Positions 10,436 to 28,269 of a DNA stretch of 59,137 bases are shown here, piece after piece. The notes under the pieces are model-generated. The model made no database searches. It was not told where the DNA came from and saw nothing but the letters and a program-made list of their open reading frames with translations. Each line of letters starts with the position of its first letter. Within the stretch, counting starts at the first letter, position 1. The DNA comes from a virus. Its lineage: Duplodnaviria; Caudoviricetes. The position numbers and the translations under genes are program-made. The DNA lies in the IMG/VR virus record IMGVR_UViG_3300023179_000118, positions 1-59,137 of that record; one strand, 5' to 3'.

Positions 10436-10439
10436 GAGG

Positions 10440-11860: not shown

Positions 11861-11863
11861 TTA

Positions 11864-12136
11864 TCAAGTTCCTTGACGAATGATATTTACTGTTTGCGTT
11901 CCCGATGCTACGACTGCGTATAACTTTTCTCCACCCTGTAATTCGACAGAGAAACTGGTGTCTGCTTTGAGAAGAAAACCATAAGAGGTTGTCGTCACAC
12001 CATCTCCGCCTAAATACACATCAACTCCGCCTGTTGGATTTTGAACATTGATGGTTTGACCATCTTTTCCATCATAATCAGAGGTAAGTTTTGTCGCGGT
12101 TGTTCCGACAGAGACCCTTTGGTGCGATACTGACAT
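11864..12136 (-). CDS. Small beta-rich virion protein
   Basis: VQN...VYLGG..VT...G motif; AGGAG RBS. Confidence 0.6.
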   Translation of the reverse strand: MSVSHQRVSVGTTATKLTSDYDGKDGQTINVQNPTGGVDVYLGGDGVTTTSYGFLLKADTSFSVELQGGEKLYAVVASGTQTVNIIRQGT

Positions 12137-12155
12137 AAAGACTCCTTTTCGAGAA

Positions 12156-12183
12156 GGGATGATTCATTTTACCGAATCATCCC
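12156..12183 (-). terminator. Stem-loop, possible terminator
   Basis: GGGATGATTC/GAATCATCCC inverted repeat downstream of 12189..12413. Confidence 0.5.
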
Positions 12184-12188
12184 AACTC

Positions 12189-12413
12189 TTATTCTTCTTC
12201 TTTAGTTTTTGTTTTTCTCACTTTTGGTTTTGTCTCTTCGGTGCTTTCTTCAATGAAATTAACCTTCACAGGCTCTACTGCTCCTTCAAGGATTTCGATA
12301 TACCGATTTCTTGCTAATGCTTTCGCGTGTTTCCACCCTTTAACATCAACAATAGTTCCTTGTTGAAGTTTGCGACCTTCAACAACCATAGTTTTGAGAA
12401 TTTTTGCTTTCAT
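12189..12413 (-). CDS. Small hypothetical head-associated protein
   Basis: Likely start MKAKIL at 12413; position after the capsid genes. Confidence 0.55.
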   Translation of the reverse strand: MKAKILKTMVVEGRKLQQGTIVDVKGWKHAKALARNRYIEILEGAVEPVKVNFIEESTEETKPKVRKTKTKEEE

Positions 12414-12414
12414 T

Positions 12415-12759
12415 TTAAGCGGTGGTATCAATCCAGCAATATGAGAAGGTTGCTTCAGCCTGATTGATTGCCCCTGCGGTTGGATTGTAAAGATAGACGG
12501 TGACTGTATTCGCTGCCGTTACCGCTGCTCCACAAAAAATCAAATCATCGTTAAGGGTTGATGGTGGATTCACGATAATAATATCGGTTGTAGCAGCACC
12601 AGTGAGTGTGAATGTTGTTCCACCACGGGTTGTTGCGTTGATTGAAGCAGGGTCGATTGCTACTGTTCCGAACTCGATACCGTAAACGGTATCGTTATTG
12701 CCAACTTGTAGAGCGCCAACCGCTACTTCACCCTTGGAAAGTCTGTTTACTAATGCCAT
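12415..12759 (-). CDS. Putative capsid decoration/fibre protein
   Basis: 114 aa beta-rich, directly after the major capsid gene; AGGAG RBS. Confidence 0.55.
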   Translation of the reverse strand: MALVNRLSKGEVAVGALQVGNNDTVYGIEFGTVAIDPASINATTRGGTTFTLTGAATTDIIIVNPPSTLNDDLIFCGAAVTAANTVTVYLYNPTAGAINQAEATFSYCWIDTTA

Positions 12760-12824: not shown

Positions 12825-13802
12825 CTAAGCGACGATGCTTGTCCAGAAGTAACCGAGGTCAGAAGCGATGACTTTGTTATCCCAAGCCATTTCTGCTTCA
12901 ACACGGTCAGACTTGATGGATTCCATACGGAACTGTGAAGTACCGATGGTTGAACCAAGTCCACCTGAAACACCTGTCCATGAGAAGGTGTAACCTGCGG
13001 ATGGGGTCAAAAGACCAGGTTGCGGAGCAACATGGGCAAGAAGCGCACCCTTACCGAAAGCGAAACCATAAGCGCCAGTAGCACCCTCATTGTTGGTTGC
13101 CTTGACAGCCTTAGCCACCATAACGCGAGGAATGTCGAACATTGCTCCAAGCATATCGGTGGTAATGGTCTGGGCAGAGGTGTATTTGATACGGTCAACA
13201 AGGTCTGGGTGATTCTTCAGAGACTTGAAAACTTCGTAACCAAGTACGAGTGTGTTTGCTTCCATTCCAGTGTTGGAAAGAATCTCAGCCTTTCCTGCCT
13301 CAATATCAGTGATTGGGTCAGAAGAGGTGTAATCGCTCCATTGCTTTGTCTCACCCGATGAAGGCGCACCAGAAACTCCAGTGACATCATCTGCCCAAAC
13401 ACCAGTGGTGAAGAAGTCAGTGACAAATTGAAGTTCTTTGCGGAGCATCATACGACGGGTAACGAACTCAGTAGCCTCACGAAGAGGATTCAATGGAGCA
13501 TCTGCGTTAGCAACAGTTTGGTCATCTACATCTTTGTGGAAAGCATAGACATCGCATGAATATGTTCCAGTGGAGATGTTGTAACCGCCACCAGCCGACT
13601 CGGTACCAGGCGCTCGGCGTTGAGCCTCATCGCGGAACCAGTCATTCTTGGTGTAAGTGAAGAACTTATCGCTCTTCTTATCGACAGGGATTACTGGGAA
13701 CACCTTGTCAGCGATAAAGTTATCTTGATTTTGAAGATACGCCACCGAGATATTGGTGAGAATCGCATCGACATGGACTGAATTGATATTTGGTTGTGGC
13801 AT
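12825..13802 (-). CDS. Major capsid protein
   Basis: 325 aa; VDAILTNISVAY...FIADKVFP.IPV N-terminus; position after the scaffold and decoration genes. Confidence 0.85.
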   Translation of the reverse strand: MPQPNINSVHVDAILTNISVAYLQNQDNFIADKVFPVIPVDKKSDKFFTYTKNDWFRDEAQRRAPGTESAGGGYNISTGTYSCDVYAFHKDVDDQTVANADAPLNPLREATEFVTRRMMLRKELQFVTDFFTTGVWADDVTGVSGAPSSGETKQWSDYTSSDPITDIEAGKAEILSNTGMEANTLVLGYEVFKSLKNHPDLVDRIKYTSAQTITTDMLGAMFDIPRVMVAKAVKATNNEGATGAYGFAFGKGALLAHVAPQPGLLTPSAGYTFSWTGVSGGLGSTIGTSQFRMESIKSDRVEAEMAWDNKVIASDLGYFWTSIVA

Positions 13803-13817
13803 TTCTAGTTATCCCCC

Positions 13818-14213
13818 TTAAGACGCTCTGCCTGGATTAGCACAGTTGATTACGGCTGTAACGATGTTTCCATCAGCAGCGGATTCAGTAAGAAGGGTTC
13901 CGACGACATACTTTGTGGTGTCAGTTCCAGCGACAAGAGCAACTGCCTTGCCAGCGGAACTTGTACCAACAAGTGCGCCTTCACCAATGGCTGCTCCCGC
14001 AACAATTTTTGTTCCGCCGACAACCAGCACTTCTGCTTCTTGTCCTGCGGTTGGAGCATTTTGTAGAACGCCGATTGGAATATCGGTGGCTGCTGCTGCT
14101 GCTGCTGCTTGACCTGATGCGTCCAACTTGACGAATGTGTATTGCTTACTGGAAAGGTCGGCTGCTGCTACGAGAGTGACCTTTACCGAGTAATTAGAGA
14201 TTTCGTATGCCAT
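13818..14213 (-). CDS. Capsid decoration/cement protein (DUF2190-like)
   Basis: AAADL...FVKL, IGVLQNAP.AG motifs; Ala/Gly-rich. Confidence 0.75.
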   Translation of the reverse strand: MAYEISNYSVKVTLVAAADLSSKQYTFVKLDASGQAAAAAAATDIPIGVLQNAPTAGQEAEVLVVGGTKIVAGAAIGEGALVGTSSAGKAVALVAGTDTTKYVVGTLLTESAADGNIVTAVINCANPGRAS

Positions 14214-14216
14214 GTT

Positions 14217-15011
14217 TTAGGCACCTTTCTTCTCGGATAGGTATTGGCTGTAAAGGTCGGGATTCTTTGTAGCGATGTCTGCGAGCGCTTGCTCAAAAGA
14301 CTTTGCCACACCCTCTTCGACTGCCGACTTAGCCAATGAGGTCATGCGCTCATAAGCATTGCCCGTTTTGAAGTCTGCGGATTTGCCTATCTCCGCAAAA
14401 ATTTGTGCTGATTCAGCCTGAGCATTTACTGAAGAAAGAATCTCTTCAACAGATTTTGCTAGGTCTGAATCGTATGAGGTCAGACGACGAAGCGCTGGCC
14501 CAACTTTTTCGGCATCGAGGTTTAGATTGCTCCAACCCTTTGCCTTTTCGACTGCCTCAGCATCGGCACGAGCATCCCGTTCTTTTTGAAGTTCGGCTTT
14601 TGCTTCATCTGCCTCTTTGCGGAGACTTTCAATCATTTTGACGACTGGCTCTGGAGCGGATTTCATGTAATCCATTGACTCATCCTCTGCCATCATTTCG
14701 CCATCTTTTTTCTTTTTCTTGTCCTCTTCGGACATTTTTTCGACGGCTGCCTCTAACTCTTCAATACGAGCCTTGGCGATGGTGAGTTGTTCTTCTACGG
14801 ATTTTTCGACCTGCTCTTCAGTAGCCTCGGTTGTTTGCTCCATAGTGGAGTCCTCCTCGGTGAGCGTTTCGTCTAAGACTCTCTGAACTTCAGATTCATC
14901 GGCTGATTTCATAACCAACCAACCTTCGTGTAAGTGTGCGGGGTGGTCGACCCCGCTTGTTTCTTCAATGGCGAGATTCACCATTTTGCGAGTACGACCT
15001 GCCAATGTCAC
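14217..15011 (-). CDS. Capsid scaffolding protein
   Basis: Acidic coiled-coil; EETSGVDHPAH N-terminus; NPDLYSQY C-terminus; many xxK-S/A sites. Confidence 0.7.
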   Translation of the reverse strand: MTLAGRTRKMVNLAIEETSGVDHPAHLHEGWLVMKSADESEVQRVLDETLTEEDSTMEQTTEATEEQVEKSVEEQLTIAKARIEELEAAVEKMSEEDKKKKKDGEMMAEDESMDYMKSAPEPVVKMIESLRKEADEAKAELQKERDARADAEAVEKAKGWSNLNLDAEKVGPALRRLTSYDSDLAKSVEEILSSVNAQAESAQIFAEIGKSADFKTGNAYERMTSLAKSAVEEGVAKSFEQALADIATKNPDLYSQYLSEKKGA

Positions 15012-15109: not shown

Positions 15110-15382
15110 TTACTGACTTAATACTTTTGTCTTAGATATGGCTTGTATCAAGTCATTACAGACCCACATTGAGAAGGGATTATCGTTTGCCCAGAATCTC
15201 GCAAGCCTAAAATAGTAATCATCATTATCAATTTTTGACCAAACAAAAAAGGCATACCCGTTATTGGGTAGATATACGGATAGCCCTGCGAATCCAGGGG
15301 GAGTATTTACCCGATTAGCGGTCAGCCCCATATTCCAGAGAACAGCCAAAACATCATCAAGGATGTTCATATCGGGTTTCAC
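15110..15382 (-). CDS. Hypothetical protein
   Basis: 90 aa, coupled to the upstream stop. Confidence 0.55.
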   Translation of the reverse strand: MKPDMNILDDVLAVLWNMGLTANRVNTPPGFAGLSVYLPNNGYAFFVWSKIDNDDYYFRLARFWANDNPFSMWVCNDLIQAISKTKVLSQ

Positions 15383-15942
15383 TAATCTCCGTATTCGCCC
15401 TCTGAATCGTCTTTTAGTGGTTTCTTCTGACGATTGTTCTTTGGTTCAATATCATTTTCACCCTCCGAGTCATCCTCATCAAAAGAATTCCAAGTTCCGT
15501 GAGCCTTTTGGTCGTGTTGATTCCCTAGATGCTTGGATACCCGCCGTAGGGTAGAAGCCTTATGCCCCACAAGTGTTTCAGTCTCTTCGCCATCTTTGAA
15601 AATTCTAATAAGAACTGCGGGGTCATCCTCGGTAGCATTTACTTTGAATGAGGATTCAGGAATTCCTAAAACACCTTCCCGCATAATGTGTTCGATGCGA
15701 CCCTGCGCTTGACCGCCTGATGAATTCCAACTGACCATATCGCCATTTTTAAGTTTGCTTGCTTTTTCCATGACAATCGCTTGCTCTCTCATTGCCTTTG
15801 TCACGATTGATTTAGCATAGCCCGTCAATCCCTTAATACCCTTTTTGGCTACCTCTTCTTTAATCATTAGGTATTCCATCTCACCTAAAGACTTCATAGA
15901 AGATTTACGAAGTTGTTCAAGAATGGCGTTATCTTTCTTCAT
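15382..15942 (-). CDS. Head-module protein with DUF2945/Tudor-like domain and one His-rich tag
   Basis: GDMVSWNSSGG.A.G.I and GHK.STL motifs; KHLGNQHDQKAHGTW near the C-terminus. Confidence 0.7.
   Translation of the reverse strand: MKKDNAILEQLRKSSMKSLGEMEYLMIKEEVAKKGIKGLTGYAKSIVTKAMREQAIVMEKASKLKNGDMVSWNSSGGQAQGRIEHIMREGVLGIPESSFKVNATEDDPAVLIRIFKDGEETETLVGHKASTLRRVSKHLGNQHDQKAHGTWNSFDEDDSEGENDIEPKNNRQKKPLKDDSEGEYGD
15490..15534 (-). repeat. His-rich coding repeat KHLGNQHDQKAHGTW
   Basis: Translated from sequence. Confidence 0.9.
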
Positions 15943-16654
15943 TTTTATCTTTCTTCTTTGAAGGTTTCATAATTGTATCGACATGGACATCTGACACACC
16001 TGGTTCGCTTTTTTCCATATCGACATAAAGGCGTTCTGCTTTACCACCAATGGAATAACCTAAGATTTTTCCATTCTTGACATCTTCCCAAGCCCAAGGC
16101 TCCCAGATAACGCCCAGAAAAACTGTGTTCGGTGGATAGGTGTGATTGATAGGTATGCCACTTGGAGTTTGGATGGGAACGGTCAACTCATAGGGAAAGG
16201 TCATTACTTCTACCCATTCGCCCGCTACAACATCTCGATTGTGCTGGAGACGAATTCGGCGGTCATTGCTGCGAACATATTCCCAAACTGCTCTTTGTAA
16301 TTCTTCCGCATCTGTCCACTCGTTATGAGCGTCTACTCTATCGGGAATATACATTGCTCCCAATGTATATCTCTTTGCGCCTTCAGATTTAGAGACTTCA
16401 TAATTTCCAACTTTTCGCGCAACCTGCTTTTCTACTTCAGCATATTGGTTTTCAAAAATCTCTATCAAATCGTCGTATTCGGTACCTACCCATTCATTTA
16501 CGGGAGACATCATCGTGCCTTCAGGTGCGGTAGCAACTTGTTCTTGGATTCTTAAAAAATGCTCCTCGTGTTCTTTTGAAAGACCAGAATCTTCAAAAGA
16601 CTTACCCATGACGACAAGCGAAAAGATTGCGTTAGCCATATCAGCAGAAAGCAT
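15929..16654 (-). CDS. XkdF-like prohead serine protease with N-terminal extension
   Basis: Y.PD..DAH.E, LQH, GE.VE and VK.G...GYSIGG motifs; TAATG overlap gives start 16654. Confidence 0.8.
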   Translation of the reverse strand: MLSADMANAIFSLVVMGKSFEDSGLSKEHEEHFLRIQEQVATAPEGTMMSPVNEWVGTEYDDLIEIFENQYAEVEKQVARKVGNYEVSKSEGAKRYTLGAMYIPDRVDAHNEWTDAEELQRAVWEYVRSNDRRIRLQHNRDVVAGEWVEVMTFPYELTVPIQTPSGIPINHTYPPNTVFLGVIWEPWAWEDVKNGKILGYSIGGKAERLYVDMEKSEPGVSDVHVDTIMKPSKKKDKNEER

Positions 16655-19056
16655 TATTCGTTTCCTTTCGCCAAGAAGTCGTTCCATAGACCTGAATTTT
16701 GAACACTAAACTCATTGCCCGCGCCACTTCCGATAAGGGTGGGTGAAGTGCCTGTGTTATCCCATAGTGAGACGCTATCGAATAAATTACCCTCAATCGC
16801 CTGTCGTAGAGTATTGGATACATCGCGGTGTGTGCTTCTTACGACATCTTCTGGCACATATCGCTTAGTTTCCCCTAGCGCTCTTTGAACACTTCTTTCC
16901 CAGGCCATATTGGTAGGAATCGTGACATAAATGCCATTTACCTTATATCCCGCTAGACGCGCTTCATTGACCTTATCGGAAAGTTTCTGAATTTTGGAGT
17001 CACCAGTTCCATCTAACACAATGTCTTGATTTTGTTTAATAGCAACTCGCTGGACAACCCTTGCGAGAATAGACGATTCCTCGTGAGAGAAACGAGCAGC
17101 ATTAAAGAAATCGGCATCATTTCCCTCGCGCATACGCGGGTTTTCTGGCAACATCTCTTTAATATCGTCGGCGTTAATTTGAACTGCTTTAGTCTTATCT
17201 GGAACGCCCACCGCACCTGATTTAATCAAACTTGATTTACCTGATGCTGGCCCTCCACCCAACATATAAAAAGTCGGGTTGGATGATTGAGGAACATTAC
17301 CCGTCACCTTTTTAATAATTTGTTGATGTAGGTAAGCGCGTTCATCCGATAGTTTGTAACCGCCTTGTCCATCAGAGACTAGATGATGCCAGAGTGAATC
17401 TTCTGGGGTAAATGTTTTGTCTTTGAAAGAAACGGACTCTGGTATTCCTGCTTTATATCCACCCGTTGCGTCGGGATTGACAACTCGGCCTTCTGAATCT
17501 TTATTGAGGGCAGGAATTTTTCCACTCGCAATAAGGTCTGCTCGTGAACCAGCCCATGAACCGTGGCTGGCTTGGTCATGTTGACCTTGAAGATGTTTCC
17601 AAACAAATAAAGATTTCTTTGCTGGTTCTTTGGCATCAATGGCTTGCGATTCAAAACCCTTGGCTTTTGCCCATTCGAGCGACGCATCAAGAGCCTCTTT
17701 CGCATTAAGGTCGATTCGATAAATAGGTAATTTGGCTCCACCATCAAAAAAATGTGCTACGGAGGCACCCCAAGTGTGATGACCGTCAATTACATAACCA
17801 TCTTTAGACACTAAAATTCGGTCTTTTTCTGGGATACGACCCTTTTCATCCCCGTCATCATTTGTTTTTCTTGTTTTTTCATAAATCGCACCAACTCGGG
17901 AACCTGAAATTTCTTTTTGGATGGGTTTTAATTTTGTTGGGTCAACTTTTTCTTTTGAAACGCTAATGCCTTCCTTCGATAAGTCTTTCAGAAAATCTGG
18001 TCTTGCTTTGTCGGGAATTTGGGGCATATCTTTTCTAGCGATACCCATGCCTTCGCCACCAAAGAGCAAAGAGCCTTTAACTCGTAATTCTGTAATATCG
18101 GGATGGTCGGTTCTTTGTCTCATCCCCATAAAGAGCGCTGAAATGTTTTCTGGCTCTACCTCGGGCTGTTCGCCATTAAGAATCTTTTCGGCAATATCTT
18201 TTGCCCAACTGCCATGCGTTTTTTGGTCATGCCCACCAGGATTGTGTTTTTCTACTTCCCTCTCGGCTCGGGCAACCATTGACTCGGCCCACGCAAAGCC
18301 AGCGTCGCCACCCCACGCATCCCACGCGACCCTGCCTGGTGAGGGAAATCCTTTTTCGCCCTGCGAAAATCCGAGGGCGTTTTTATCGACCTCGTGGCGC
18401 GAGAAGAACGACTTCATTCTCTTTAGCGTTTCTAGGGAGACGGCTTCGCCCGATGCCAGTTGTTCCGCTCGGCGACGACCAACAGAGGTGAACCCTGAAC
18501 CCGCCTTACCCTCTGCTATCCAGTCTAAGGCCCGCCTAGCAGCGCTTCTGACCGCTTTGGGGGGCGTGTTATCAGCCTTGCTGAAAGAATGAATCTGTCG
18601 AAGGCGTTGCTTGGCTTCCTCTTCTGTATCGTAAGTGCCAAACGGTCTAGTGCCTGTTTTGTCGTAAACAGTCCATTTACCCTTTTCCTGCCGAATTTCT
18701 TTGTTGACTGATTCTTCGGCGATTGGTTCGACCCGCATCTCGTAACCGTTAATGGTGAGAACGACTCGAACATCTCCCACATTGGATTCAGTCTTAGCAA
18801 GGAAAGACTCCGATAACCCCTCTGGCAAACTCAAACCAAGGGCAGTCAGGTCAGCATTTTTGATTAGGTCGACTTGTATCTCGTAGTTATTCCAGTCATC
18901 CTGTGGCTGCTCCACTCCACGCCTTGCCATCTCTACAAGTACGAGGTGATGAAGTTCTAGCGTCGCGGGATTTGGCTGAGATTTATGTAGGCGCTCATGT
19001 AGGCTCGATAATTGAGAGCCTTGTAATTCGATGAGTTTTGAAGAAATTTCCGCCAT
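16654..19056 (-). CDS. Multidomain head-associated polyprotein: N-terminal head domains, tag, ParB-like domain, tag, zeta-toxin-like P-loop kinase
   Basis: AWDAWGGD domain; LKPIQ...ILVS.DGYVIDGHH (ParB/Srx); GGGPASGKS, NADDIK, HEESS, DGTG (zeta-like). Confidence 0.85.
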   Translation of the reverse strand: MAEISSKLIELQGSQLSSLHERLHKSQPNPATLELHHLVLVEMARRGVEQPQDDWNNYEIQVDLIKNADLTALGLSLPEGLSESFLAKTESNVGDVRVVLTINGYEMRVEPIAEESVNKEIRQEKGKWTVYDKTGTRPFGTYDTEEEAKQRLRQIHSFSKADNTPPKAVRSAARRALDWIAEGKAGSGFTSVGRRRAEQLASGEAVSLETLKRMKSFFSRHEVDKNALGFSQGEKGFPSPGRVAWDAWGGDAGFAWAESMVARAEREVEKHNPGGHDQKTHGSWAKDIAEKILNGEQPEVEPENISALFMGMRQRTDHPDITELRVKGSLLFGGEGMGIARKDMPQIPDKARPDFLKDLSKEGISVSKEKVDPTKLKPIQKEISGSRVGAIYEKTRKTNDDGDEKGRIPEKDRILVSKDGYVIDGHHTWGASVAHFFDGGAKLPIYRIDLNAKEALDASLEWAKAKGFESQAIDAKEPAKKSLFVWKHLQGQHDQASHGSWAGSRADLIASGKIPALNKDSEGRVVNPDATGGYKAGIPESVSFKDKTFTPEDSLWHHLVSDGQGGYKLSDERAYLHQQIIKKVTGNVPQSSNPTFYMLGGGPASGKSSLIKSGAVGVPDKTKAVQINADDIKEMLPENPRMREGNDADFFNAARFSHEESSILARVVQRVAIKQNQDIVLDGTGDSKIQKLSDKVNEARLAGYKVNGIYVTIPTNMAWERSVQRALGETKRYVPEDVVRSTHRDVSNTLRQAIEGNLFDSVSLWDNTGTSPTLIGSGAGNEFSVQNSGLWNDFLAKGNE
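17554..17598 (-). repeat. His-rich coding repeat KHLQGQHDQASHGSW
   Basis: Precedes the zeta-like domain. Confidence 0.9.
18205..18249 (-). repeat. His-rich coding repeat KHNPGGHDQKTHGSW
   Basis: Precedes the ParB-like domain. Confidence 0.9.
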
Positions 19057-19096
19057 CTTCTAATACTACAATATAAATATAAAACTGGGATTTATT

Positions 19097-19264
19097 TTAT
19101 TCTACTGGAGTATAATCTAAAGACTTATCCTTCTTTGCGACAAGGGCAACAAAGGCATCTTCATCTTCCGTACTTGCTAGATATTCGTCTTGGAAATCGC
19201 CCTTGGGATTCCATTCACGATAAGCCTCGGCTATCGCCTTTAGTTTCTCTGCTCGTGAACTCAT
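19097..19264 (-). CDS. 55-aa protein MSSRAEKLKAIAEAYREWNPKGDFQDEYLASTEDEDAFVALVAKKDKSLDYTPVE (candidate inhibitor; not in ORF track)
   Basis: ATGA overlap with the upstream stop; GGGAGG RBS. Confidence 0.7.
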   Translation of the reverse strand: MSSRAEKLKAIAEAYREWNPKGDFQDEYLASTEDEDAFVALVAKKDKSLDYTPVE

Positions 19265-21996
19265 GCTTGTCCTCCCTGGGGTGCTGGTCTCTCTCGTGCG
19301 GTTCCATCATAGACCAATCCATCTCCATCTCGGTCTATTGGCCCCTCAACAACGGTTCTTCCCTCTGGGGTAAGGACTTTCTCGTAATGGAGCCGTAATC
19401 CAGCCATGACGGTTTTACCATCCCACTCGGTACCATCTGAAGTTTTTTGCCTACTCCCATAACCCAACATAGCAAATTCATAAGGTGTGGGAACATCACT
19501 ATTTCTCAAAGATTTAGGTCGCTCAAAATCATTTATGATGTCTGTCTTACCATCATAAATTGGGTTATTGACAGCGCGACCCATTACTTCATTGAAATCA
19601 GAAACAAATTTATCTCTTTGCGTAAAATCTGGTCTATCATCGGCAGTAACTACACGATTTAATGCTTGTTCCGTCAAAAACCTAGCGTGTTCTCGGGCAT
19701 TGATGGTGATACTTCTTAAATCTTCATCAAGGTTATCGGGAGACCAGTCATATCCCATACGCGCCCAGTGCCTTGCTCCATCCCAAGCGGTTCCTACCAC
19801 AATTTTATCTATCCCTGCCTGTGTTGCCCAATCTTCGCTTCTATCAACAAAAACTTTACCGAATCCAGTACCACGATATTCTTCCATAAGTCTAAAATAA
19901 TCGTGTTCTTGAATTACTTCACCATTTTCTCCAATAGTCCAACTCCGCACAAAGCCTGGCCCTTCGCTTACCACCTCGCCATCTTCATTGTAGACCTGAC
20001 CTTGAATCAATAACCTGCCACCTTCAATTCCTATATCTTCAACTTCACTTCTCAGGGTAACTTCATTGCCATTTACATCTTTACCCGTGTGTTCAACATT
20101 GTAAACTTCTTCAAAGAAACTTTGTAATCCTTCAACAGAATCTACTTCCACTTCATTGAGTTCTCGATATTGTTCAAGAATTCTCTCTCGATTCGCGTTG
20201 ATATATTCTTCTCGCGCCAGAGGGTAAGAATCCTCAACTAAATTATTAAAAAAAGCAGTTTGTTCTTCTAAATATTTGCCAAGATTTTCTTCTTGTAACT
20301 TTTTATTTTCTTCTTCTGCTTCCCAGTCAGCCATGGCATCACTTTGATTTACCCAATCAATAGCAATTTCTCGAATCTGTTCATAATCATACGAATCATT
20401 ATCAACCATCATATTTAATTCGTCATCTGGTGGGTCTGCGAGTTTGGAAGCGTTACCCTCTAAGGCATTGATGATGTCTTGTTTGGCTGGCCCTATATCT
20501 TGAACTTCAGACAATCTTTGGGCCATTTCCTCTGGATAACCTCGTTCTGCCCAACTGCCATGCGTGGCTTGGTCGTGTTGACCTGGAAGGTGCTTAATTA
20601 CTGGAATGAGACCCGCTTGGAACTTAATAATAAGGGGCTTTTGATATTTTCTGTTTTTAGTGAACGAGGTGGGAACTTTCCAATAGGTTGATGGCAACAA
20701 GGCAACCTTTTGTTCAGCGAACTGCTTACCACGATTGTTAAAGAAAGAATTCTGACCTCGTGTTTCTGTGGTTAACGCTGCCCTAGCATTTTCGGTAAAC
20801 ATTTGTGAGTGATGTACCCAAGCAGCCTCTTCGCCATCTTGTCCGAATCCTCGACCAGTCGCAGCGTGTCCAAAGAAATCATGGACAGCGCGAAACTTAT
20901 TATTTTGCTCATCTGAAAATAGGGGATGCGCTCCCGTGGTTTCGGTTTGTAAAACTTTTAATCGGCCTTGACTTACATCCGCAAACATTTCTTTGGATGT
21001 CTTGTAGGGGTCATCAGGAACAAACTCAACTTTGACCCCTAGGGTCTTGGTCATAAAGTCGTACTGCTCTTCTACTTCTGATGCCAGTGCTTCATATTCG
21101 TCAACCGCACTCTTATCAAACTTTGGTAACTCTTCATAGACATCTGCGATTTGTGCTGCGCGTTCTCGGTTTGCCACAACCTTTGTGTAATCAATAGTCT
21201 CATCGTGTTTAAGACCCTTTTTGAAACTATATTCCAGTGCGCCATCCCTGGCCGATTTAACGGAATCTTCTGGGTAGCGCGTTCCCGCCCAATTACCGTG
21301 TGTTCTTTGGTCATGCTGACCTTCAAGGTGTTTTTGAACTACGGAATAACGCCCTAAGCAGACATGGGGGGTTAGTGATTGCCCTGGATTGCTTCCAGAA
21401 TCTCGTCGGTAAATTGGTCTAGTTCTTGCTCGGTCATTTCTTTGACTGGCTTTGGTGTCTCTATCATCACGGGCTTTGTTGGTTCGCTCATCGACTTCCT
21501 CCTCCATGTAAATATACGAGTCGTTGACAACATCGTATATGGCTTTTTGCTTATTACGAAATCCTGCTTGAACTCCCTCTGACCGCGTATCGTATCGGCG
21601 AGAAACATCCAAGTAAAGTTTTCCCTTCTCAACCCAACCGCCGAAAAAGGTACCCCTACCCGTCAGTAACTCTCCATGTTCCTTGATATAACCCTTGATA
21701 GTTTGGCGCAGAACATCGCGTGAGACGCTAACCTTGGCCCAATCGTAGATTTTCTCAGCCCCTCTGTCCGAGGCGATATATCCCGTTTTGGGTGAAGTTT
21801 TTGTTTGTAAATCTATGCTGAATCCTGGCGTTCTTTTCTGGCTTAATTTATCTATGAGGCTTGTGACCACGGTTTCGCCTGAAGCCCAACTGCCATGGGT
21901 TCTTTGGTCGTGTTGTCCAACAAGATGCTTTGCTACCGAGGCGGGGATTATTTTTATATCCTCCATATCGGTGTAGAACTTATCTAAAAGGCTCAT
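19261..21996 (-). CDS. Three-tag polyprotein: GGW/YLDVS domain, HDxxGH domain, acidic region plus GNAT acetyltransferase
   Basis: Tags at aa 23, 222 and 468; FRAVHDFFGH...GEE...ETRGQNS; EYRGTGFG...WARMGY (GNAT motif A/B). Confidence 0.85.
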   Translation of the reverse strand: MSLLDKFYTDMEDIKIIPASVAKHLVGQHDQRTHGSWASGETVVTSLIDKLSQKRTPGFSIDLQTKTSPKTGYIASDRGAEKIYDWAKVSVSRDVLRQTIKGYIKEHGELLTGRGTFFGGWVEKGKLYLDVSRRYDTRSEGVQAGFRNKQKAIYDVVNDSYIYMEEEVDERTNKARDDRDTKASQRNDRARTRPIYRRDSGSNPGQSLTPHVCLGRYSVVQKHLEGQHDQRTHGNWAGTRYPEDSVKSARDGALEYSFKKGLKHDETIDYTKVVANRERAAQIADVYEELPKFDKSAVDEYEALASEVEEQYDFMTKTLGVKVEFVPDDPYKTSKEMFADVSQGRLKVLQTETTGAHPLFSDEQNNKFRAVHDFFGHAATGRGFGQDGEEAAWVHHSQMFTENARAALTTETRGQNSFFNNRGKQFAEQKVALLPSTYWKVPTSFTKNRKYQKPLIIKFQAGLIPVIKHLPGQHDQATHGSWAERGYPEEMAQRLSEVQDIGPAKQDIINALEGNASKLADPPDDELNMMVDNDSYDYEQIREIAIDWVNQSDAMADWEAEEENKKLQEENLGKYLEEQTAFFNNLVEDSYPLAREEYINANRERILEQYRELNEVEVDSVEGLQSFFEEVYNVEHTGKDVNGNEVTLRSEVEDIGIEGGRLLIQGQVYNEDGEVVSEGPGFVRSWTIGENGEVIQEHDYFRLMEEYRGTGFGKVFVDRSEDWATQAGIDKIVVGTAWDGARHWARMGYDWSPDNLDEDLRSITINAREHARFLTEQALNRVVTADDRPDFTQRDKFVSDFNEVMGRAVNNPIYDGKTDIINDFERPKSLRNSDVPTPYEFAMLGYGSRQKTSDGTEWDGKTVMAGLRLHYEKVLTPEGRTVVEGPIDRDGDGLVYDGTARERPAPQGGQA
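20551..20595 (-). repeat. His-rich coding repeat KHLPGQHDQATHGSW
   Basis: Precedes the GNAT-containing segment. Confidence 0.9.
21289..21333 (-). repeat. His-rich coding repeat KHLEGQHDQRTHGNW
   Basis: Precedes the HDxxGH domain. Confidence 0.9.
21372..21491 (-). CDS. Overprinted 39-aa acidic ORF MSEPTKPVMIETPKPVKEMTEQELDQFTDEILEAIQGNH inside the 911-aa gene
   Basis: GGAGGAGG RBS just upstream; the main frame is a low-complexity linker here. Confidence 0.7.
   Translation of the reverse strand: MSEPTKPVMIETPKPVKEMTEQELDQFTDEILEAIQGNH
21886..21930 (-). repeat. His-rich coding repeat KHLVGQHDQRTHGSW
   Basis: Precedes the GGW/YLDVS domain. Confidence 0.9.
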
Positions 21997-22886
21997 GGAT
22001 TCAACCTCTGGAAAACCGCTACTGTAATTTTCTCTGTATAGTTTGAAGAAATTGGTGGCTCAAAGTATGGTCTTTCTATTTCTTCATAACCCATAAATTT
22101 TAATTGTGTATCTCTTGGCAAAATTACTTCTCTTTCGCGTTGCGTTTGACTAGGACTATGACTACTTTGTATTGATTCAAAAAATAAATCGGGCATCAAT
22201 CCTCTATCTCCGCCTTGTTTTGTCGGAAGAATAACCATAACCGAATCTTTAGATGAAGATATATCTTGTAACATCTCTAGGGTTCTTCGCTCTGTTTTAT
22301 CTATGATGTTTGCTCGGGTGGTCGAAAGAAAACCCTTATCAACCAATACATCACCCTCATTAAGAGATTCTAAAACCCTATTAGATACAACACGATAAAG
22401 ATTGTTATACCCGATAACCTTTGGCGCTTCATCAATCACTCTGTCTAAATCAAATATTTTGCGCTTCAAAGATTGTGGATTTTCACCGCTAAGTTCAAAT
22501 TCACCAAGTTTTCCTCGCAAGAAACCATTCATTGCTTTGTAACCATATTCCACATAATCGGCTACCGTATCGACCAACATAGATGGTGGCGCTTCTATTT
22601 CGTATTGTTCCGAATATGCCAGTTCTGCTTTTATCCTATCTTGGTCACTAAAATTGCCAGCCCATGAGCCATGAGTTTTCTGGTCATGCTCACCAGCAAG
22701 GTGTTTATCAAATTCTTCATAAACAGCATCCCAATAACCTCTTGCGATTATTGTGGCAACTGATTTCTCGGGATAAATGAAACCAGTCTTTGTTCTTACA
22801 GCACCCATTAACTCATTGTTTCGTGTTTGTGTATAAATGACCTCGTTGCCATTTGCTTTACGGTAAAGAATTGTTCCTTGTATCAC
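21993..22886 (-). CDS. Tagged VIP2/C2-type ADP-ribosyltransferase with N-terminal ~60-aa module
   Basis: LYR...GFLSTT...EREVILPR (R-S-E class ART); probable GTG start at 22886 with GAGG RBS. Confidence 0.85.
   Translation of the reverse strand: MIQGTILYRKANGNEVIYTQTRNNELMGAVRTKTGFIYPEKSVATIIARGYWDAVYEEFDKHLAGEHDQKTHGSWAGNFSDQDRIKAELAYSEQYEIEAPPSMLVDTVADYVEYGYKAMNGFLRGKLGEFELSGENPQSLKRKIFDLDRVIDEAPKVIGYNNLYRVVSNRVLESLNEGDVLVDKGFLSTTRANIIDKTERRTLEMLQDISSSKDSVMVILPTKQGGDRGLMPDLFFESIQSSHSPSQTQREREVILPRDTQLKFMGYEEIERPYFEPPISSNYTEKITVAVFQRLNP
22662..22706 (-). repeat. His-rich coding repeat KHLAGEHDQKTHGSW
   Basis: Precedes the ART domain. Confidence 0.9.
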
Positions 22887-22887
22887 T

Positions 22888-24234
22888 TTAATCCTCAACC
22901 TTTAATGGCAATACTGGGATATTAACCCCTTTTTTCTCTAAGGCGTTTTGAATACCGTCAATAGTCCATTGATTTATTTTTCCTTCAACTGGAGTTACAT
23001 AAATCGCTTTAATATCCTTTAATTTGACTCCCCCATACACTTGCGTTTCACCGTAACCCTCTCTTTGGAATCCTCCATGACTGGGAGACATATCATGTTG
23101 AAGTCCAGCCATCTCCATTGTTGCGCGGGTATGATTTTCTGTCAAGGGTCTGGCTAGGGCATATCCATCCAAAGAATCAATTACGGTATATGAAGTGCGC
23201 TCTCGTACATCATCATTAAGGACTACGCGAACTTCACCATACTGGCTTACCGCGTCATTATTTATATTCCATCTATCTCTGTTATATCCGCTTGTATTTG
23301 GTGATGTTCCTTGAATTTGATTTGCCAAATATCCATAAATAGGTCTCTCACTGGCCTTTGTGTCTTGCGTAACTCCCATATAAGCCAGTTCACGAGTTCG
23401 TCGAAGATAAGGCTTGTATGCCCCATTGCTTTCCCTAGTTTCAAATTGCGTTTTGAACCTTCCATCCGCAATTACATTCATAAAGTCTTGACCATCAATA
23501 GCGATAACTGGAAATGCTGTTTTTAGATTTTCCGCAAAAGTTTTTGCTGTTTTTTCATACTGCTTGAAATATCCCGTTAAAAAAATCCGCTTTCCTTCTT
23601 CGGGGAGATACGGTGCTAAGGTTTTTGCCAATTCAAATCTTACTTGTTGATTGGTATTAGTAATGTATATTCCCACGCGGTCTGACATGGCGGTAACAAA
23701 ATAATCAGCATTTCTGCCAGTCATACCATTTTCTTGTGCTACTTTCGCATAATGAAGTTCTACATCTTCTCTATATGCTGATACATAGCCTTCAGAAATT
23801 TTTGTTAGTTTTTCCTTTAATTCGTCATCCATCTTGCCACTTTCTTCGATTTCACCTCTCATTTTTTCTATGTTGAGCGAAGTCAAAGGAGTATCCATGT
23901 TATTTCGCGCTAATTGTTCTCCGTATTTGAGCCACACACCAGAACCCCGAGAATCCTCTATGTAATCTGGGGGCATATCTTCACGGCGCGTAGAAGTAAT
24001 AAATTTCCTATCCACCACAACTCGACGCGAAACAACTGGCTCATTGTGCCTATTTAATTGTGCTTTTTGTAATAATCCAGCGTCACGAAGGTCTTGAAAT
24101 CCTTCCTCATAGTTTGTTATCTCGTGAGGCAATCCAGTAGCAGCCCAACGACCATGAGTTTTCTGGTCATGCTGACCCGCTAAGTGTTTTAGTGTTGGTT
24201 TGAGGTGTGGAGGAAATTTAATTACTACGCTCAT
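22888..24234 (-). CDS. Tagged protein with C-terminal DUF3626-like domain
   Basis: GRFKTQFET..S.G, RPIYGYL, QYG.V..VL, RTSYT..DS, ETQVYGGV.L.DI. Confidence 0.75.
   Translation of the reverse strand: MSVVIKFPPHLKPTLKHLAGQHDQKTHGRWAATGLPHEITNYEEGFQDLRDAGLLQKAQLNRHNEPVVSRRVVVDRKFITSTRREDMPPDYIEDSRGSGVWLKYGEQLARNNMDTPLTSLNIEKMRGEIEESGKMDDELKEKLTKISEGYVSAYREDVELHYAKVAQENGMTGRNADYFVTAMSDRVGIYITNTNQQVRFELAKTLAPYLPEEGKRIFLTGYFKQYEKTAKTFAENLKTAFPVIAIDGQDFMNVIADGRFKTQFETRESNGAYKPYLRRTRELAYMGVTQDTKASERPIYGYLANQIQGTSPNTSGYNRDRWNINNDAVSQYGEVRVVLNDDVRERTSYTVIDSLDGYALARPLTENHTRATMEMAGLQHDMSPSHGGFQREGYGETQVYGGVKLKDIKAIYVTPVEGKINQWTIDGIQNALEKKGVNIPVLPLKVED
24145..24189 (-). repeat. His-rich coding repeat KHLAGQHDQKTHGRW
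   Basis: Near the N-terminus of the DUF3626-like protein. Confidence 0.9.
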
Positions 24235-25244
24235 CGCGTTCCTCTATCTGGCGGAATCAAGACCATGGTACAACGGCAATGAGGATGAACGAATCCTGGT
24301 GTCTCATAGCCAATCGAGAACACGCCATTCCACTCAACTGTTTCTCCATCGAGAGGAGCGCATACTGGACAAGTTCTCTCATCTTGCGCCGTCATCCACA
24401 TCTTCATCGAAGAGGGGTCAATATAACCAGCGTCAAATGCTTGTTGCCATCCCTCGGCTCTTCCCGCTTGCTCTGCCATATTGATTTCGCTGCGAGCAAT
24501 CATGGAGGCTCGGGCGCGTAATAATCTATCTGCGTACTTTTCGGCTCTATCGGCAGCCGTGGCCCTTGCCCTTTCCTCAGAAATGCCCATTTTTGTTAAT
24601 CGGCGAATTTCTTCATTTTCAAATTTTATTACTGCCTTTGCCCAACGAGGATGTAATCCAACTATGTTTTTAATTCTTTTAGCGGTAGTTCGATAATCAA
24701 TTTGTTGGGTAAAAGCCTCGGTAATGATGTCTTGAATTGCTCTCCTTGTTAAGCCATCAATACTGGTCACTAATTGACCAGCCCGACGGGAAGCATAAGC
24801 AACAGAATTAGGATTGGTCTTATCGAAAGAAAGAGTGAACTCTGCTGTTGGCGGATTGGGGCTTGCCCATGCTGGTATCGGGGTGAAATCCATATTAGCC
24901 ATGGGCTTTGGGTTTAATATCTCTACTTTTGAAGGAAGGAAAACGGGCAAAGCAATTTTGTTACCTAATTCTTTTATTCTTTCTACTGCGTCAACTCCAC
25001 CAACTTCAATGGCTGACAATAATTGCGTCTCCACTTTTTTGCCTTCAGAATAAATGGTGATGGCATCTAAAAGTCGTCGCAAAGAATCTGGGTCAAGCGC
25101 TCCGATAATCTTTGCTAAACGCTCAACAGATATTTTGTTGCTTGCCTTTTTAATTGCGTCATACAGAGAACGCGCTAATGCTGCCTCTGATGGTGTAAGT
25201 GGGTTACGAGAACCATTGGAATCGGAGCCATTGGATATAGCCAT
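24231..25244 (-). CDS. MuF / SPP1 gp7-like head morphogenesis protein (no toxin fusion)
   Basis: RA.MIARSE, W.TA.DERTCPVC, HPHCRC; directly after portal. Confidence 0.9.
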   Translation of the reverse strand: MAISNGSDSNGSRNPLTPSEAALARSLYDAIKKASNKISVERLAKIIGALDPDSLRRLLDAITIYSEGKKVETQLLSAIEVGGVDAVERIKELGNKIALPVFLPSKVEILNPKPMANMDFTPIPAWASPNPPTAEFTLSFDKTNPNSVAYASRRAGQLVTSIDGLTRRAIQDIITEAFTQQIDYRTTAKRIKNIVGLHPRWAKAVIKFENEEIRRLTKMGISEERARATAADRAEKYADRLLRARASMIARSEINMAEQAGRAEGWQQAFDAGYIDPSSMKMWMTAQDERTCPVCAPLDGETVEWNGVFSIGYETPGFVHPHCRCTMVLIPPDRGTR

Positions 25245-25247
25245 TTA

Positions 25248-26666
25248 CTACTCCAAATCGCCGTCTAGCGGTTCCTGTCCTTCAGGTATCTCTAACTCTT
25301 CTTCTTCTGGTTCTTCTTGTACGACTTCATCCTTCATCTCTAAAGGTTCTGGCATATCAGGCATACCAAAGCCTTCGGAATCATGTTCGGCTGGTGGTAA
25401 ACCTGCCATCTCGCGTAAATAATCTTCCAACTTGGGGTCTGGAACAAGAACGCCCGATTGAGCCAACTGAGAAACAAAATTCGATATTTCTGTTAGGTCA
25501 ATATGGCTAACCTCGCCGTAAGTGAGGTATGGCAAACGAGATGTATCCATGCCATTTAATTTAAGAAGGCGTGGAATTGCGTATTGATTCATTACTTCGG
25601 CGATATTCTTCGCAATAGAATCAACGGCCATTGACCATAAATCCATCTTTGACGCACCAAGCGCATAAGAGCCAACTCGGTCAGAACCCAAAAGAATAAA
25701 GTCGGAAAGAATAGACATAGACATTCTTTGGTCATAGCGCTGAATAATCTTGTCTGTGTCGAACTGACGGCTTCCCCCAGAGGACATCAATACGAGGTCA
25801 AACATCTTGTGACCCTGCTCGTCGTACATCGACGGCATGATGATTCCCTCTTGTTCATTGCGCTTGATACTTGTCACGATAGATTGAATCTGGGCCAGAA
25901 CGGTTGATTGTTCTGCGCTCGCCGAGGAAGATAAATACTCAGGTGGTACATAGGCAACTGGCAAGCCCGCTAAATCGCGCTCAACACCGATGGCTTCAAT
26001 CTCTTCAATACGACGCTTGAAATACCAAGGGCGATACGCATTGCGAAGGATGGAGCGACCTTCTGGGTTATTTTTTTGAATAGAGGTACGGAATAATAAA
26101 GACTTCTCAATCGGGATGGTATGGATTCCACCTGTTGATGGGTCAACTTGAACCATCGCTTGAATTCCACCATCTTCATCTAATTCCCAACGGAAGAGCG
26201 TTTCCTGAGCGCGGATTGGCATTTTGCGCCATCCGATTTTGTTATCGTTAAATTTTGAGCGCTTCTTTGGGTCAGTTGTATCTCCACCTCGAACTTTGTA
26301 AACAATCTCGTGGTAGGAAAAACCAAATATCAACATAGAAAGAATTTGAGTAAGGGTGGCATCCCATGAATCACTCATATCGTGTAAACATGATTCGACA
26401 AATTGAGCGACTTCTTTATCCTCTGGAGTAATATCACCATCCGAGGAATCATCAGAATATGGGTCAACTCGCCATTCGAGACGAGTAATTATTTTCTCAA
26501 TCGCAAACAGCATCGACCCGATAGTTGGGTCATTGTCTGCCATCTCTCGATAGGTCTTGAAACCGCGCTGACCGCGAAGGTTGATAACAAATTCTTCAAA
26601 GACCGTTCCGCCCGAGCGTCGGAGTCCTGTTGAGCCTAACTCTTGTAAGTCGGGTTTCTTTACCAT
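25248..26666 (-). CDS. Portal protein
   Basis: 472 aa; GFSYHEIVYK, NPEGRSILRNAY..W..K, GSYAL motifs. Confidence 0.9.
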   Translation of the reverse strand: MVKKPDLQELGSTGLRRSGGTVFEEFVINLRGQRGFKTYREMADNDPTIGSMLFAIEKIITRLEWRVDPYSDDSSDGDITPEDKEVAQFVESCLHDMSDSWDATLTQILSMLIFGFSYHEIVYKVRGGDTTDPKKRSKFNDNKIGWRKMPIRAQETLFRWELDEDGGIQAMVQVDPSTGGIHTIPIEKSLLFRTSIQKNNPEGRSILRNAYRPWYFKRRIEEIEAIGVERDLAGLPVAYVPPEYLSSSASAEQSTVLAQIQSIVTSIKRNEQEGIIMPSMYDEQGHKMFDLVLMSSGGSRQFDTDKIIQRYDQRMSMSILSDFILLGSDRVGSYALGASKMDLWSMAVDSIAKNIAEVMNQYAIPRLLKLNGMDTSRLPYLTYGEVSHIDLTEISNFVSQLAQSGVLVPDPKLEDYLREMAGLPPAEHDSEGFGMPDMPEPLEMKDEVVQEEPEEEELEIPEGQEPLDGDLE

Positions 26667-27211: not shown

Positions 27212-27625
27212 TTAAAAAGGTGGGATGTCGCTCCATGGGTCGTCATTCTCTTTGGTCGATTCGTTCCTTTGGACAACATCTCCAATAGATACGCTGTGTC
27301 GCTTTAGGTCGACTCCCACGCTGAAAGCGGTTACTTCCATTCGAGACTTGCGCTCTCCCGAATTTTTATCCTCCCATGAGGTTTGGATAGCGGAGCCATG
27401 AACTACTACCCCCACACCCTTTCGTAAGGAATCTGCGACATTCTCGGCAAGTCGATTCCAACACTTGATTGTCCAGGGCGTGATGTCACTGGATTCCCAT
27501 GTGCCATCGGGTTTTTTGACCGACTTAGACGAAATGACAGTAAAGACCGCTACCGCTTTTCCGTTATTTGTGAATTTCAATTCTGGGTCTTGGGCTAGAT
27601 TGCCAACGATGGTTAGCGTGGTCAT
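27212..27625 (-). CDS. ssb: Single-stranded DNA-binding protein
   Basis: TIVGNL..DPELKFT, W..LAENVA.SL.KG, acidic DDPW..IPPF tail (actinobacterial type). Confidence 0.95.
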   Translation of the reverse strand: MTTLTIVGNLAQDPELKFTNNGKAVAVFTVISSKSVKKPDGTWESSDITPWTIKCWNRLAENVADSLRKGVGVVVHGSAIQTSWEDKNSGERKSRMEVTAFSVGVDLKRHSVSIGDVVQRNESTKENDDPWSDIPPF

Positions 27626-28165: not shown

Positions 28166-28269
28166 GACGGAAATACTACTCGGGTTTATCTGAATCCAGC
28201 GGAAATCTCTCGCGTGTTGCGTCAGCAAATCTTTCAAGAATTAAAGCCTTCAATAATTCTTCGCGTGAT

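Follow-up and report, generated by a model that had tools for sequence, protein, structure and literature searches.

Why would a phage write the same short peptide, again and again, ahead of unrelated domains encoded among its head genes? The question is raised by IMG/VR record IMGVR_UViG_3300023179_000118, the genome of a tailed phage, analysed here over the whole virus record of 59,137 bases (hereafter the window). Spread over five consecutive open reading frames (ORFs) that run from the gene for a MuF-family minor capsid protein to those for an XkdF-type prohead protease and a scaffold are eight copies of a 15-residue motif, K-H-x4-H-D-Q-x-[TSA]-H-G-x-W, referred to below as the tag. The original prediction, drawn from the DNA of this record, took the tag for a portable signal for capsid loading and/or ejection. 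The motif is real, widespread and under selection at the level of the peptide, and sequence comparison makes it likely that the tag is a portable signal marking cargo in the head module.

Eight copies of one peptide in five proteins

A six-frame search with the motif as a regular expression recovers exactly eight matches in the window, and a degenerate DNA pattern agrees. All eight lie on the minus strand, and every predicted position, as well as the placement in five ORFs between MuF and scaffold, was reproduced. The mean number of matches in 100 dinucleotide-preserving shuffles of the window is 0.00. Even the tripeptide HDQ occurs just eight times in all six frames, every time within a tag.

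At the level of DNA the copies are far from uniform. Their 45-nucleotide stretches share a mean nucleotide identity of 0.71 (range 0.56–0.82), and the third positions of their invariant degenerate codons are 0.54 identical, which is approximately random. Because synonymous positions are close to random, selection acts on the peptide and not on the DNA, as had been proposed from the differing codons of the copies. These figures bear directly on one alternative, namely that the tag is a linker retained for the recombinational shuffling of effector cassettes, in the manner of the boundary motifs of polymorphic toxins. Modules are indeed shuffled, fused and split at tags among relatives, and the phage encodes Erf-, Gam-, exonuclease- and RusA-type recombination functions. 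However, stretches so divergent, with random synonymous sites, speak for selection on the peptide; the linker explanation was rejected on this ground and is barely credible.

Beginning next to MuF, the first tagged protein is p448 (22888–24234, minus strand, as are all five), the start of which overlaps the MuF stop. Its 15-residue leader, MSVVIKFPPHLKPTL, is followed by tag copy 1 (KHLAGQHDQKTHGRW; 24145..24189, residues 16–30, the lysine of the tag being residue 16) and then by a weakly DUF3626-like domain. This domain scores 19.8–20.2 bits, below the Pfam cut-off of 27; since the tagged relatives L069 and L016 score 37.6–37.9 bits for DUF3626, it is likely related to that family, short of established membership. 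In p301 (21993–22898), tag copy 2 (KHLAGEHDQKTHGSW; 22662..22706, residues 65–79, lysine at 65) separates a small, folded N-terminal domain of 60 residues from an ADP-ribosyltransferase (ART). The latter matches ADPrib_exo_Tox at 26.7 bits (cut-off 23.4), and in a 19-sequence alignment R169, E255 and E257 are nearly invariant (≥90%), with an STT stretch present in most sequences.

The largest of the five, p911 (19261–21996), consists of three modules, each a tag followed by a domain, with tag lysines at residues 23, 222 and 468. Copy 3 (21886..21930, residues 23–37) is N-terminal and precedes an unknown domain. Copy 4 (21289..21333, residues 222–236) stands directly before an HDxxGH domain at 247–437 that matches phrog_3170 at 1.8e-52. 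Copy 5 (20551..20595, residues 468–482), itself preceded by the extended upstream strand motif IIKFQAGLIPVI, lies ahead of a C-terminal region that is weakly GNAT-like (19.1–20.6 bits, just under the cut-off of 20.7). The next tagged protein, p800 (16654–19056), overlaps the XkdF ORF at its end by 34 nucleotides. It comprises an N-terminal part, p800N, then copy 6 (18205..18249, residues 270–284, lysine at 270), a ParB-like segment, copy 7 (17554..17598, residues 487–501, lysine at 487) and a zeta-toxin-like kinase domain (residues 588–769; Zeta_toxin at 81 bits, cut-off 22.3). Lastly, p186 (15382–15942) carries copy 8 (15490..15534, residues 137–151, lysine at 137) between an Hva1_TUDOR domain (67–114) and an acidic tail of 35 residues.

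Seven copies thus stand at the start of different domains, as originally described, and three of those seven are internal junctions; the eighth, in p186, has the Tudor domain upstream and the acidic tail only downstream. As for the identity of the domains, the zeta, ART and HDxxGH labels of the original prediction are solid, and the DUF3626 and GNAT labels are weak, both falling below their cut-offs. The ParB-like label derives from tblastn matches to phage genes annotated as ParB or DarB-like and from a DGHH motif; residues ~290–486 of p800 gave no Pfam match at E ≤ 1 and no PDB sequence match, so that a ParB N-terminal domain is not confirmed by profile or PDB sequence. A Pfam scan found no LPD or ART-PolyVal match in the proteins of the window.

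The N-terminal part of p800 deserves a remark of its own. Within p800N (window 18250–19056, residues 1–269), the helical C-terminal part at ~165–266 is a promiscuous head-associated module in its own right: Foldseek gives 56 matches at E ≤ 1e-3 among predicted viral structures, in which this ~105-residue domain is joined to prohead proteases, XkdF, portal, ParB/sulfiredoxin, Dps, HAD-like and Tudor proteins. A Foldseek comparison of the p800N model with the PDB gave no match at E ≤ 1e-3. The helical domain may be a second, domain-sized anchor for head-internal proteins.

The motif and its cargo beyond the window

The original prediction had proposed building a profile of the tag, searching proteins with it, and tabulating the downstream domains and the MuF/XkdF neighbourhood. 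A degenerate DNA pattern scan of IMG/VR matched at least 233 stretches, many of them arrays. Among 229 unique instances on viral contigs, columns that the pattern does not require are conserved nonetheless: G at +4 in 98%, A at +15 in 90%, V, L or I at −2 in 73% and G at +17 in 58%, the remaining flanks being unconserved. A profile built from 140 instances (alignment A1) scores the window copies at 39–51 bits, separated from noise by a clean gap, and true tags at 39–55 bits. Run against 1,835,955,588 cluster representatives, it retrieved 825 proteins at E ≤ 1e-3, 225 at E ≤ 1e-10 and 19 at E ≤ 1e-30; a second, word-indexed protein search returned 466 proteins at E ≤ 0.01 among 8000 scored candidates. 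Database names were uninformative for the 120 matches listed and a further 10 clusters, all of which are metagenomic.

Over roughly 18 residues the consensus reads [VLI]-x-K-H-x(2 or 4)-H-D-Q-x-[ST]-H-G-[SN]-W-A-x-G. A survey of 869 anchored tags in 260 proteins found a spacer of four residues between KH and HDQ in 506 and of two residues in 276, and a tail of the form G-x-W-A in 590. Lineage variants add to this latitude, most clearly an N-P variant, K-H-G-[ST]-H-D-Q-S-T-H-N-P, which is also present at some loci scored as tag-less; the variable spacing and the variants together reduce the core to KH ... HDQ-x-[ST]-H. In addition, the loss of histidine or tryptophan in variants, coupled with the changing spacer, weakens the notion of a fixed three-histidine metal site, and the rigid chelate entertained in the original prediction fits poorly.

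Individual proteins illustrate the range of forms. Two loci scored as tag-less, L264 (six copies, 4981–12744) and L267, carry K-H-G-[ST]-H-D-Q-S-T-H-N-P-[HK]-K-G-G, which dispenses with the G-x-W-A tail. P0003, a metagenomic single ORF of 7059 residues, contains 18–19 tags of the short form K-H-G-[TS]-G-D-Q-S-P-H-G-N-W-A, from which the middle histidine is missing; they often follow the upstream strand F-A-P-G-L-K-P-V-L. Ten tags occupy the 3023 residues of P0001, another metagenomic single ORF, and P0002 has nine tags and nine ART stretches in 2201 residues.

The motif appears to be a property of phages. A search of 185,579 prokaryote genomes, confined to the strict pattern, found no convincing copy; variant tags in prophages may have escaped it. 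Six matches to the strict pattern were dismissed as chance: five score 12.5–19.5 bits and the sixth below 12, and the additional G and A columns are not seen in the aligned segments. Against phage records, tblastn with p800, p911 and the protease–tag protein of record G001 found domain-level relatives only, with no tag among them, and a megablast search with the tagged block gave no match in a collection that may lack records near the window. Nor is there a tag in the 1500-residue MuF–zeta protein of cyanophage PSS2 or in gp204–gp206 of Rhodococcus phage E3. In phage E3, itself devoid of the tag, the phrog_3170 domain bears the annotation 'structural protein'.

Where the tag sits within proteins was surveyed over the 150 best proteins, which hold 502 tags. 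The N-terminus and the start of the first tag are at most 60 residues apart in 103 of the 150, internal copies are common, and the last tag has 100 residues or more behind it in 143, so that a C-terminal tag is almost never found. Gaps between successive tags are never shorter than 20 residues and peak at 150–300 residues (206 of 352). On viral contigs, tagged genes follow one another on a single strand, and single-tag proteins mostly have the tag 11–40 residues from the start. The tags thus lie on the N-terminal side of domains.

What surrounds the tag is patterned as well. Of the 869 anchored tags, 193 lie fewer than 45 residues from the N-terminus. N-terminal leaders, of which at least 140 are distinct, are typically 15–25 residues long and end in a hydrophobic strand, hydrophobic at −2. 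Recurrent leaders such as M-K-V-I-K-F-A-P-G-L-I-P-V-L are equally frequent before terminal (29/193) and internal (98/676) tags. The 10 residues upstream of the tag are enriched in hydrophobic residues (0.39 vs. a background of 0.29), and the five downstream in flexible ones (0.62 vs. 0.41). An AlphaFold2 model of p301, built with 19 homologues, has two confident domains, between which residues 62–77 lack secondary structure and have a predicted local distance difference test score below 50; the region around the tag is accordingly predicted to be disordered. Leader, flank, disorder and spacing data define the evolutionary unit as [strand]-[tag]-[short linker]-[domain], in which the tag behaves as a linear motif.

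Such positions are pertinent to the idea that the tag acts as a nascent peptide on the ribosome, by 2A-like skipping or programmed pausing. A length of ~18 residues, a location just ahead of domains and conservation at the level of the peptide are all compatible with it, and the ribosome would be a partner conserved across phage lineages. However, many tags lie only 2 to 15 residues behind the start codon of a gene of their own, so that skipping would serve no purpose, and the C-terminal end of the tag is its least conserved part. In 2A peptides the opposite holds, the C-terminal end being the conserved one. We know of no bacterial precedent for 2A-like skipping, and deem action on the ribosome very improbable.

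A more substantial alternative is that the tag is a processing junction and nothing else, cut by the prohead protease or by a co-encoded zincin-like metallopeptidase, with no part in targeting. Tags occur at every domain junction of polyproteins of 4 to 19 modules, and directly beside protease domains in three architectures involving two protease families; SprT-like, DUF6782 and ATLF-like metallopeptidase domains are found among the tagged cargo; and the predicted disorder of the tag is usual for cleavage sites. Peptidase processing of polyvalent proteins has itself been proposed (Iyer et al., 2017; PMC5512222). Such a role would not explain why a high-scoring tag is retained 2 to 30 residues behind the N-terminus of well over 100 separate proteins, where there is nothing to separate, or why C-terminal tags are so rare. 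Moreover, the tagged proteins of the window contain no conserved HExxH zincin motif, only a non-conserved HERLH in p800N. As the whole explanation, we regard processing as unlikely.

The cargo itself was catalogued in 82 tagged ORFs from viral contigs, after removal of one duplicate (L069:843-2717), with Pfam at E ≤ 1e-3. A family was assigned in 32 of them: ADPrib_exo_Tox in 8, DUF3626 in 5, Zeta_toxin in 4, SprT-like in 3, DRAT, ATLF-like, MuF, Peptidase_S78_2 and DUF2188 in 2 each, and Arr-ms and DUF7178 in 1 each. The 38 top database proteins add ART-PolyVal, GNAT, NUDIX, DUF6782, DUF7699 and a type IB topoisomerase. Such domain families are treated as head-packaged, injected effectors in discussions of polyvalent proteins (PMC5512222; PMC9503650). 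Since the other 50 ORFs match no Pfam family, the tag flags many new candidate enzymes of host takeover or counter-defence. ART genes of freshwater phages have been discussed as toxins against eukaryotic grazers (PMC6802176); the tag and the head-block position of the ARTs described here would instead suggest injection into the bacterial host.

Genomic context in the window and its relatives

The neighbourhood of the tag was sampled at 80 loci around XkdF homologues of 44–83% identity, with tags counted at ≥20 bits. Thirty-eight of the loci are tagged, all 217 of their tags lie on the XkdF strand, and none of the 118 that could be placed falls beyond the interval from MuF to scaffold. In the 38 loci that show both MuF and XkdF, the distance between the two genes foretells the presence of tags: all 15 with a gap of ≤4.2 kb have none, and 20 of the 23 with a gap of ≥5.2 kb have 2–11. 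The other three (L308–L310) have an untagged insert of 7.7 kb. In L308 (2282-10001), the order of portal, MuF, XkdF, scaffold and major capsid protein is the same, and the insert is made up of large ORFs (572, 957, 338 and 368 residues) with no detectable tag.

Complete genomes tell the same story of confinement. Five genomes of 61–62 kb, each 100% complete, have 19, 19, 5, 13 and 10 tags, and 64 of these 66 lie in one same-strand block of up to ~16 kb. The remaining two occur in two small ORFs immediately downstream of TerL (L065:973-2114; record G007, ~40.5–41.2 kb), each of which encodes a coiled-coil-like leader, a tag and a Gly/Ser-rich stretch. The association with head modules on which the original prediction depended is therefore borne out in both samples, with the pair beside TerL as the outliers.

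A comparison with a tag-less relative, L283, suggests how the tagged arrangement is related to a plainer one. There, MuF is followed by a single protein of 648 residues, in which p800N runs directly into XkdF and XkdF in turn into a Tudor region; the separate Tudor protein ends exactly at the position where the tag of p186 starts. The lineage of the window thus resembles the same head module with cassettes of tag and cargo inserted at domain boundaries. Elsewhere, tags are fused to the head genes themselves. MuF and then a tag share one ORF in L015, L064, G004 and P0036, a tag lies upstream of XkdF within one ORF in L052 and L024, and in L264 and L267 a tag directly follows the C-terminal motif of XkdF.

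Tags also occur in a head module of another type. A 36.4-kb record, 96% complete, encodes TerL, an HK97-type portal, an S78 prohead protease and an HK97-type capsid protein, and Pfam found neither XkdF nor MuF in it. Its 1497-residue multi-ART protein carries a canonical tag at residue 1194, and its protease a short variant at residue 198, 13 residues past the S78 domain (37–185). A tie to MuF or XkdF, as implied in the original prediction, is thus too narrow and is not borne out. At the other extreme of size, there are 14 tags on a fragment of 97 kb or more.

This breadth has a bearing on a further alternative, in which the tag acts after delivery, on a partner shared by all the hosts of these phages or by all particles, be it DNA, a metal ion, or a chaperone, protease or degradation factor of the host. 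Such binding would pilot ejection, permit refolding or activation, or set when the injected enzymes decay. The tag accompanies portal, capsid and protease families that are unrelated to one another, and the genomes bearing it measure between 36 kb and at least 97 kb, which speaks for a partner that is not a head protein; the invariant K, three H, D, Q and W are a composition typical of metal or nucleic acid binding; and the two small tagged ORFs beside the terminase of one relative would suit such a role. On the other hand, the variable KH–HDQ spacing, the short variants that lack one histidine and the replacement of tryptophan in some lineages are at odds with a fixed chelate, and a role after delivery leaves the restriction to the head block and the absence from early genes unexplained. 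We consider a purely post-delivery function quite unlikely.

The head block of the window, on the minus strand, reads portal, MuF, p448, p301, p911, p55, p800, XkdF, p186, p90, scaffold-like protein, 131-residue protein and major capsid protein. The portal protein (Portal_Mu in Pfam) lies at 25248..26666. MuF, of the SPP1 gp7 family, lies at 24231..25244; it has 337 residues and ends with its MuF domain (211–327), so that there is indeed no C-terminal toxin fusion, as had been noted at the outset. Downstream, the tagged block is bounded by the scaffold genes and the gene for the major capsid protein (12825..15011): the scaffold-like protein (14217–15011; phrog_13547), the 131-residue protein (13818–14213; phrog_673, 'head scaffolding protein') and the major capsid protein (12825–13802), the last 1.6 kb downstream of the block; all are on the minus strand. 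At its N-terminus (window 14940–15011), the scaffold-like protein has a His-rich stretch, E-E-T-S-G-V-D-H-P-A-H-L-H-E-G-W-L-V, that is also found in the tag-less locus L283 (11996-12100) and loosely resembles the H...H-G-x-W part of the tag.

The prohead serine protease itself, XkdF (15929..16687, minus strand), matches Peptidase_S78_2 at 45.2 bits (cut-off 24) and has no tag. H121, H149 and S212, predicted to be catalytic, are invariant in 40 homologues. The protein ends in the motif P-x-V-S-D-V-H-V-D-T-I-M and a Lys-rich tail (window 15929–16000). In the form P-[TS]-V-[ST]-[DS]-V-H-[VE]-D-[TS]-[IL]-M, again with a Lys-rich tail, this motif closes nearly all XkdF homologues and forms the junction to the next domain in fused relatives; in L298 (1138-3630) a separate ORF has it as well, upstream of the protease. 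It may serve the protease itself as a processing or targeting element.

Outside the block, the window encodes a siphovirus-type tail, TerS and TerL, as well as the recombination functions mentioned above. The terminase genes (40986–43108) lie ~14 kb from the portal gene, an unusual split of packaging from head genes, with SSB, WhiB, a plus-strand block and unknown genes in between. The WhiB-like regulator (phrog_472, 6.9e-16), together with an overlapping Cys-rich ORF (27622–27921 and 27860–28237), suggests an actinobacterial host. Beside TerS is a stand-alone second ParB-like gene (43266–44450; phrog_8071, 2.2e-142), and within a block of unknown genes is a plus-strand ORF (37251–37844) matching a PHROG of the HslV peptidase family (phrog_1040, 8.3e-22).

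Proposed cargo marking, known parallels and significance

Of what had been predicted for a loading or ejection signal, portability, conservation of the peptide, placement N-terminal to varied domains and confinement to the head block all stand; loading and ejection would account for these features, and a processing junction fits them equally well. The reading that we favour embraces both. It holds that the tag is a portable linear motif marking head-internal cargo for incorporation into the prohead, and probably also for separation by the prohead protease, and we give it about an even chance of being correct. Two complementary patterns lead to it. Well over a hundred separate proteins retain the tag with nothing there to be cut apart, which points to a role per protein, most simply selection for the prohead; and the tag is kept at every junction of the polyproteins, beside proteases of two families, which points to an event per module, most simply cleavage.

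In mechanistic terms, the tag would be recognised during prohead assembly by a conserved assembly component, the best guess being the assemblin-fold prohead protease or its partner; the protease is, we presume, the one head component that belongs to a single Pfam clan in both types of head module. Recognition would bring tagged proteins and polyproteins inside the shell. The prohead protease would then cut at or beside the tags, freeing single enzymes, and these would be ejected along with the DNA, to act on the host in the early phase of infection. We infer all of these steps, from recognition through incorporation and cleavage to injection. Co-folding XkdF (alignment A3) and the tag region (alignment A2) as a complex scored 0.00, a result that counts neither for nor against binding.

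Several observations weigh against cargo marking by a head component. XkdF, MuF, portal, scaffold and capsid proteins of the window contain neither a tag nor a tag-like cleavage site, so the ordinary substrates of the protease, if any, are not marked by the tag. Because the same tag accompanies different portal, capsid and protease families, a receptor in the head would need a site conserved across all of them, and use across these families would equally suit a partner outside the head, be it DNA, a metal, the ribosome or a host factor. The prohead-protease sites of T4, phiKZ and herpesviruses are much shorter than the 18 residues of the tag. Close relatives with the same head proteins and no tags (such as L283 and L286–L290) assemble heads, which means that the tag is unnecessary for head assembly, and the untagged inserts of L308–L310 imply that other cargo may load without it. 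Finally, a 25-residue tag found no counterpart by tblastn in 50,697 phage records, probably owing to the short query or to low-complexity filtering.

A bolder version of cargo marking would make the tag a general capsid-loading and injection signal of tailed phages, the counterpart of a secretion signal, sufficient for any protein and recognised by a component conserved across unrelated head types. This is possible, and we advance it tentatively. If it is true, effector cassettes would move freely between phage lineages.

How much of this is new? Multi-domain or serial effectors encoded in portal–terminase head modules, and inferred to be packaged and injected, are familiar as polyvalent proteins and MuF-fused effectors (Iyer et al., 2017, PMC5512222; Jamet et al., 2017, PMC5576092; Iyer et al., 2022, PMC9503650). 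The block of the window lies among the virion genes of a portal–terminase phage, as those of polyvalent proteins do, and p911 and p800 each join at least two unrelated domains in one polypeptide. The repertoires overlap: ART domains (ART-PolyVal in relatives), zeta kinase, GNAT, Nudix and metallopeptidase domains, and MuF fusions in relatives. The MuF–toxin architecture of Jamet et al. (2017) is absent from the window, where MuF is unfused; in L015, L064 and G004 it is present, with the tag at the junction. Polyvalent proteins are defined by their domains, whereas here the common denominator is a shared peptide, often on separate genes. Word searches of the main texts of PMC5512222, PMC5576092, PMC9503650 and PMC6802176 turned up no conserved peptide, whether between domains or at the N-terminus, and a full-text literature search with strings of the tag returned no paper. 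No Pfam, NCBIfam or PHROG annotation names the tag; the unnamed phrog_2859 spans it at profile positions 267–292. The effector arrays therefore fall within the known theme of polyvalent and MuF-associated packaged effectors, and the shared peptide tag appears to be the new part.

The closest functional analogues are short peptides that direct proteins into shells. The capsid targeting sequence of T4 is a short, portable N-terminal peptide that leads proteins to the interior of the prohead, is processed by the protease and works on foreign proteins (PMC11690488, citing Mullaney and Black, 1996). The tag resembles it in being short, portable and present on unrelated proteins, targeting by the tag being our inference. 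The T4 sequence, however, has ~10 residues, is strictly N-terminal, occurs once per protein and is lineage-specific, whereas the tag has ~18 residues, is repeated inside polyproteins, and spans at least two types of head module and three classes of genome size. No likeness in sequence between the two is known. Another parallel is offered by the cargo-loading peptides of encapsulins (PMC11866011; PMC8346489). In both systems a short conserved peptide and a flexible linker, predicted in the case of the tag, accompany diverse enzymes encoded beside or near the gene for an HK97-fold shell. Encapsulin peptides can by themselves load heterologous cargo; most lie at the C-terminus, and they bind directly to the shell protein. 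The tag differs in being N-terminal to its cargo and present in multiple copies, and its shell would be a DNA-filled virion.

Two further comparisons concern boundaries rather than loading. Herpesvirus assemblin precursors combine in one polypeptide a protease domain, a conserved site of ~4 to 8 residues and a further domain. G001, with an S78 protease, a tag and a C-terminal region, and L264 and L267, with XkdF, a tag and a domain, are built on the same plan; unlike assemblin sites, the tag is longer and is spread over dozens of unrelated cargo proteins, and cleavage at it is putative. Polymorphic toxins of bacteria have boundary motifs, VENN in CdiA and PxxxxDPxGL in Rhs, that occur once per protein, before the C-terminal toxin, in secreted proteins. 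The tag likewise marks the start of interchangeable effector modules, but it is repeated, specific to phages, and without a convincing copy in prokaryote genomes.

The choice of cargo for a capsid is understood in only a few model phages, of which T4, with its targeting sequence, is one. The Dar proteins of P1 provide another such model. One peptide on hundreds of unrelated cargo domains in several lineages would supply a sequence rule by which injected proteins could be recognised in metagenomes, a directly testable handle on the mechanism of loading and processing, and a different reading of the ART genes of freshwater phages. Should the tag prove to be a general loading and injection signal, then up to a quarter of a 62-kb genome, with 19 modules, would be an arsenal of injected enzymes.

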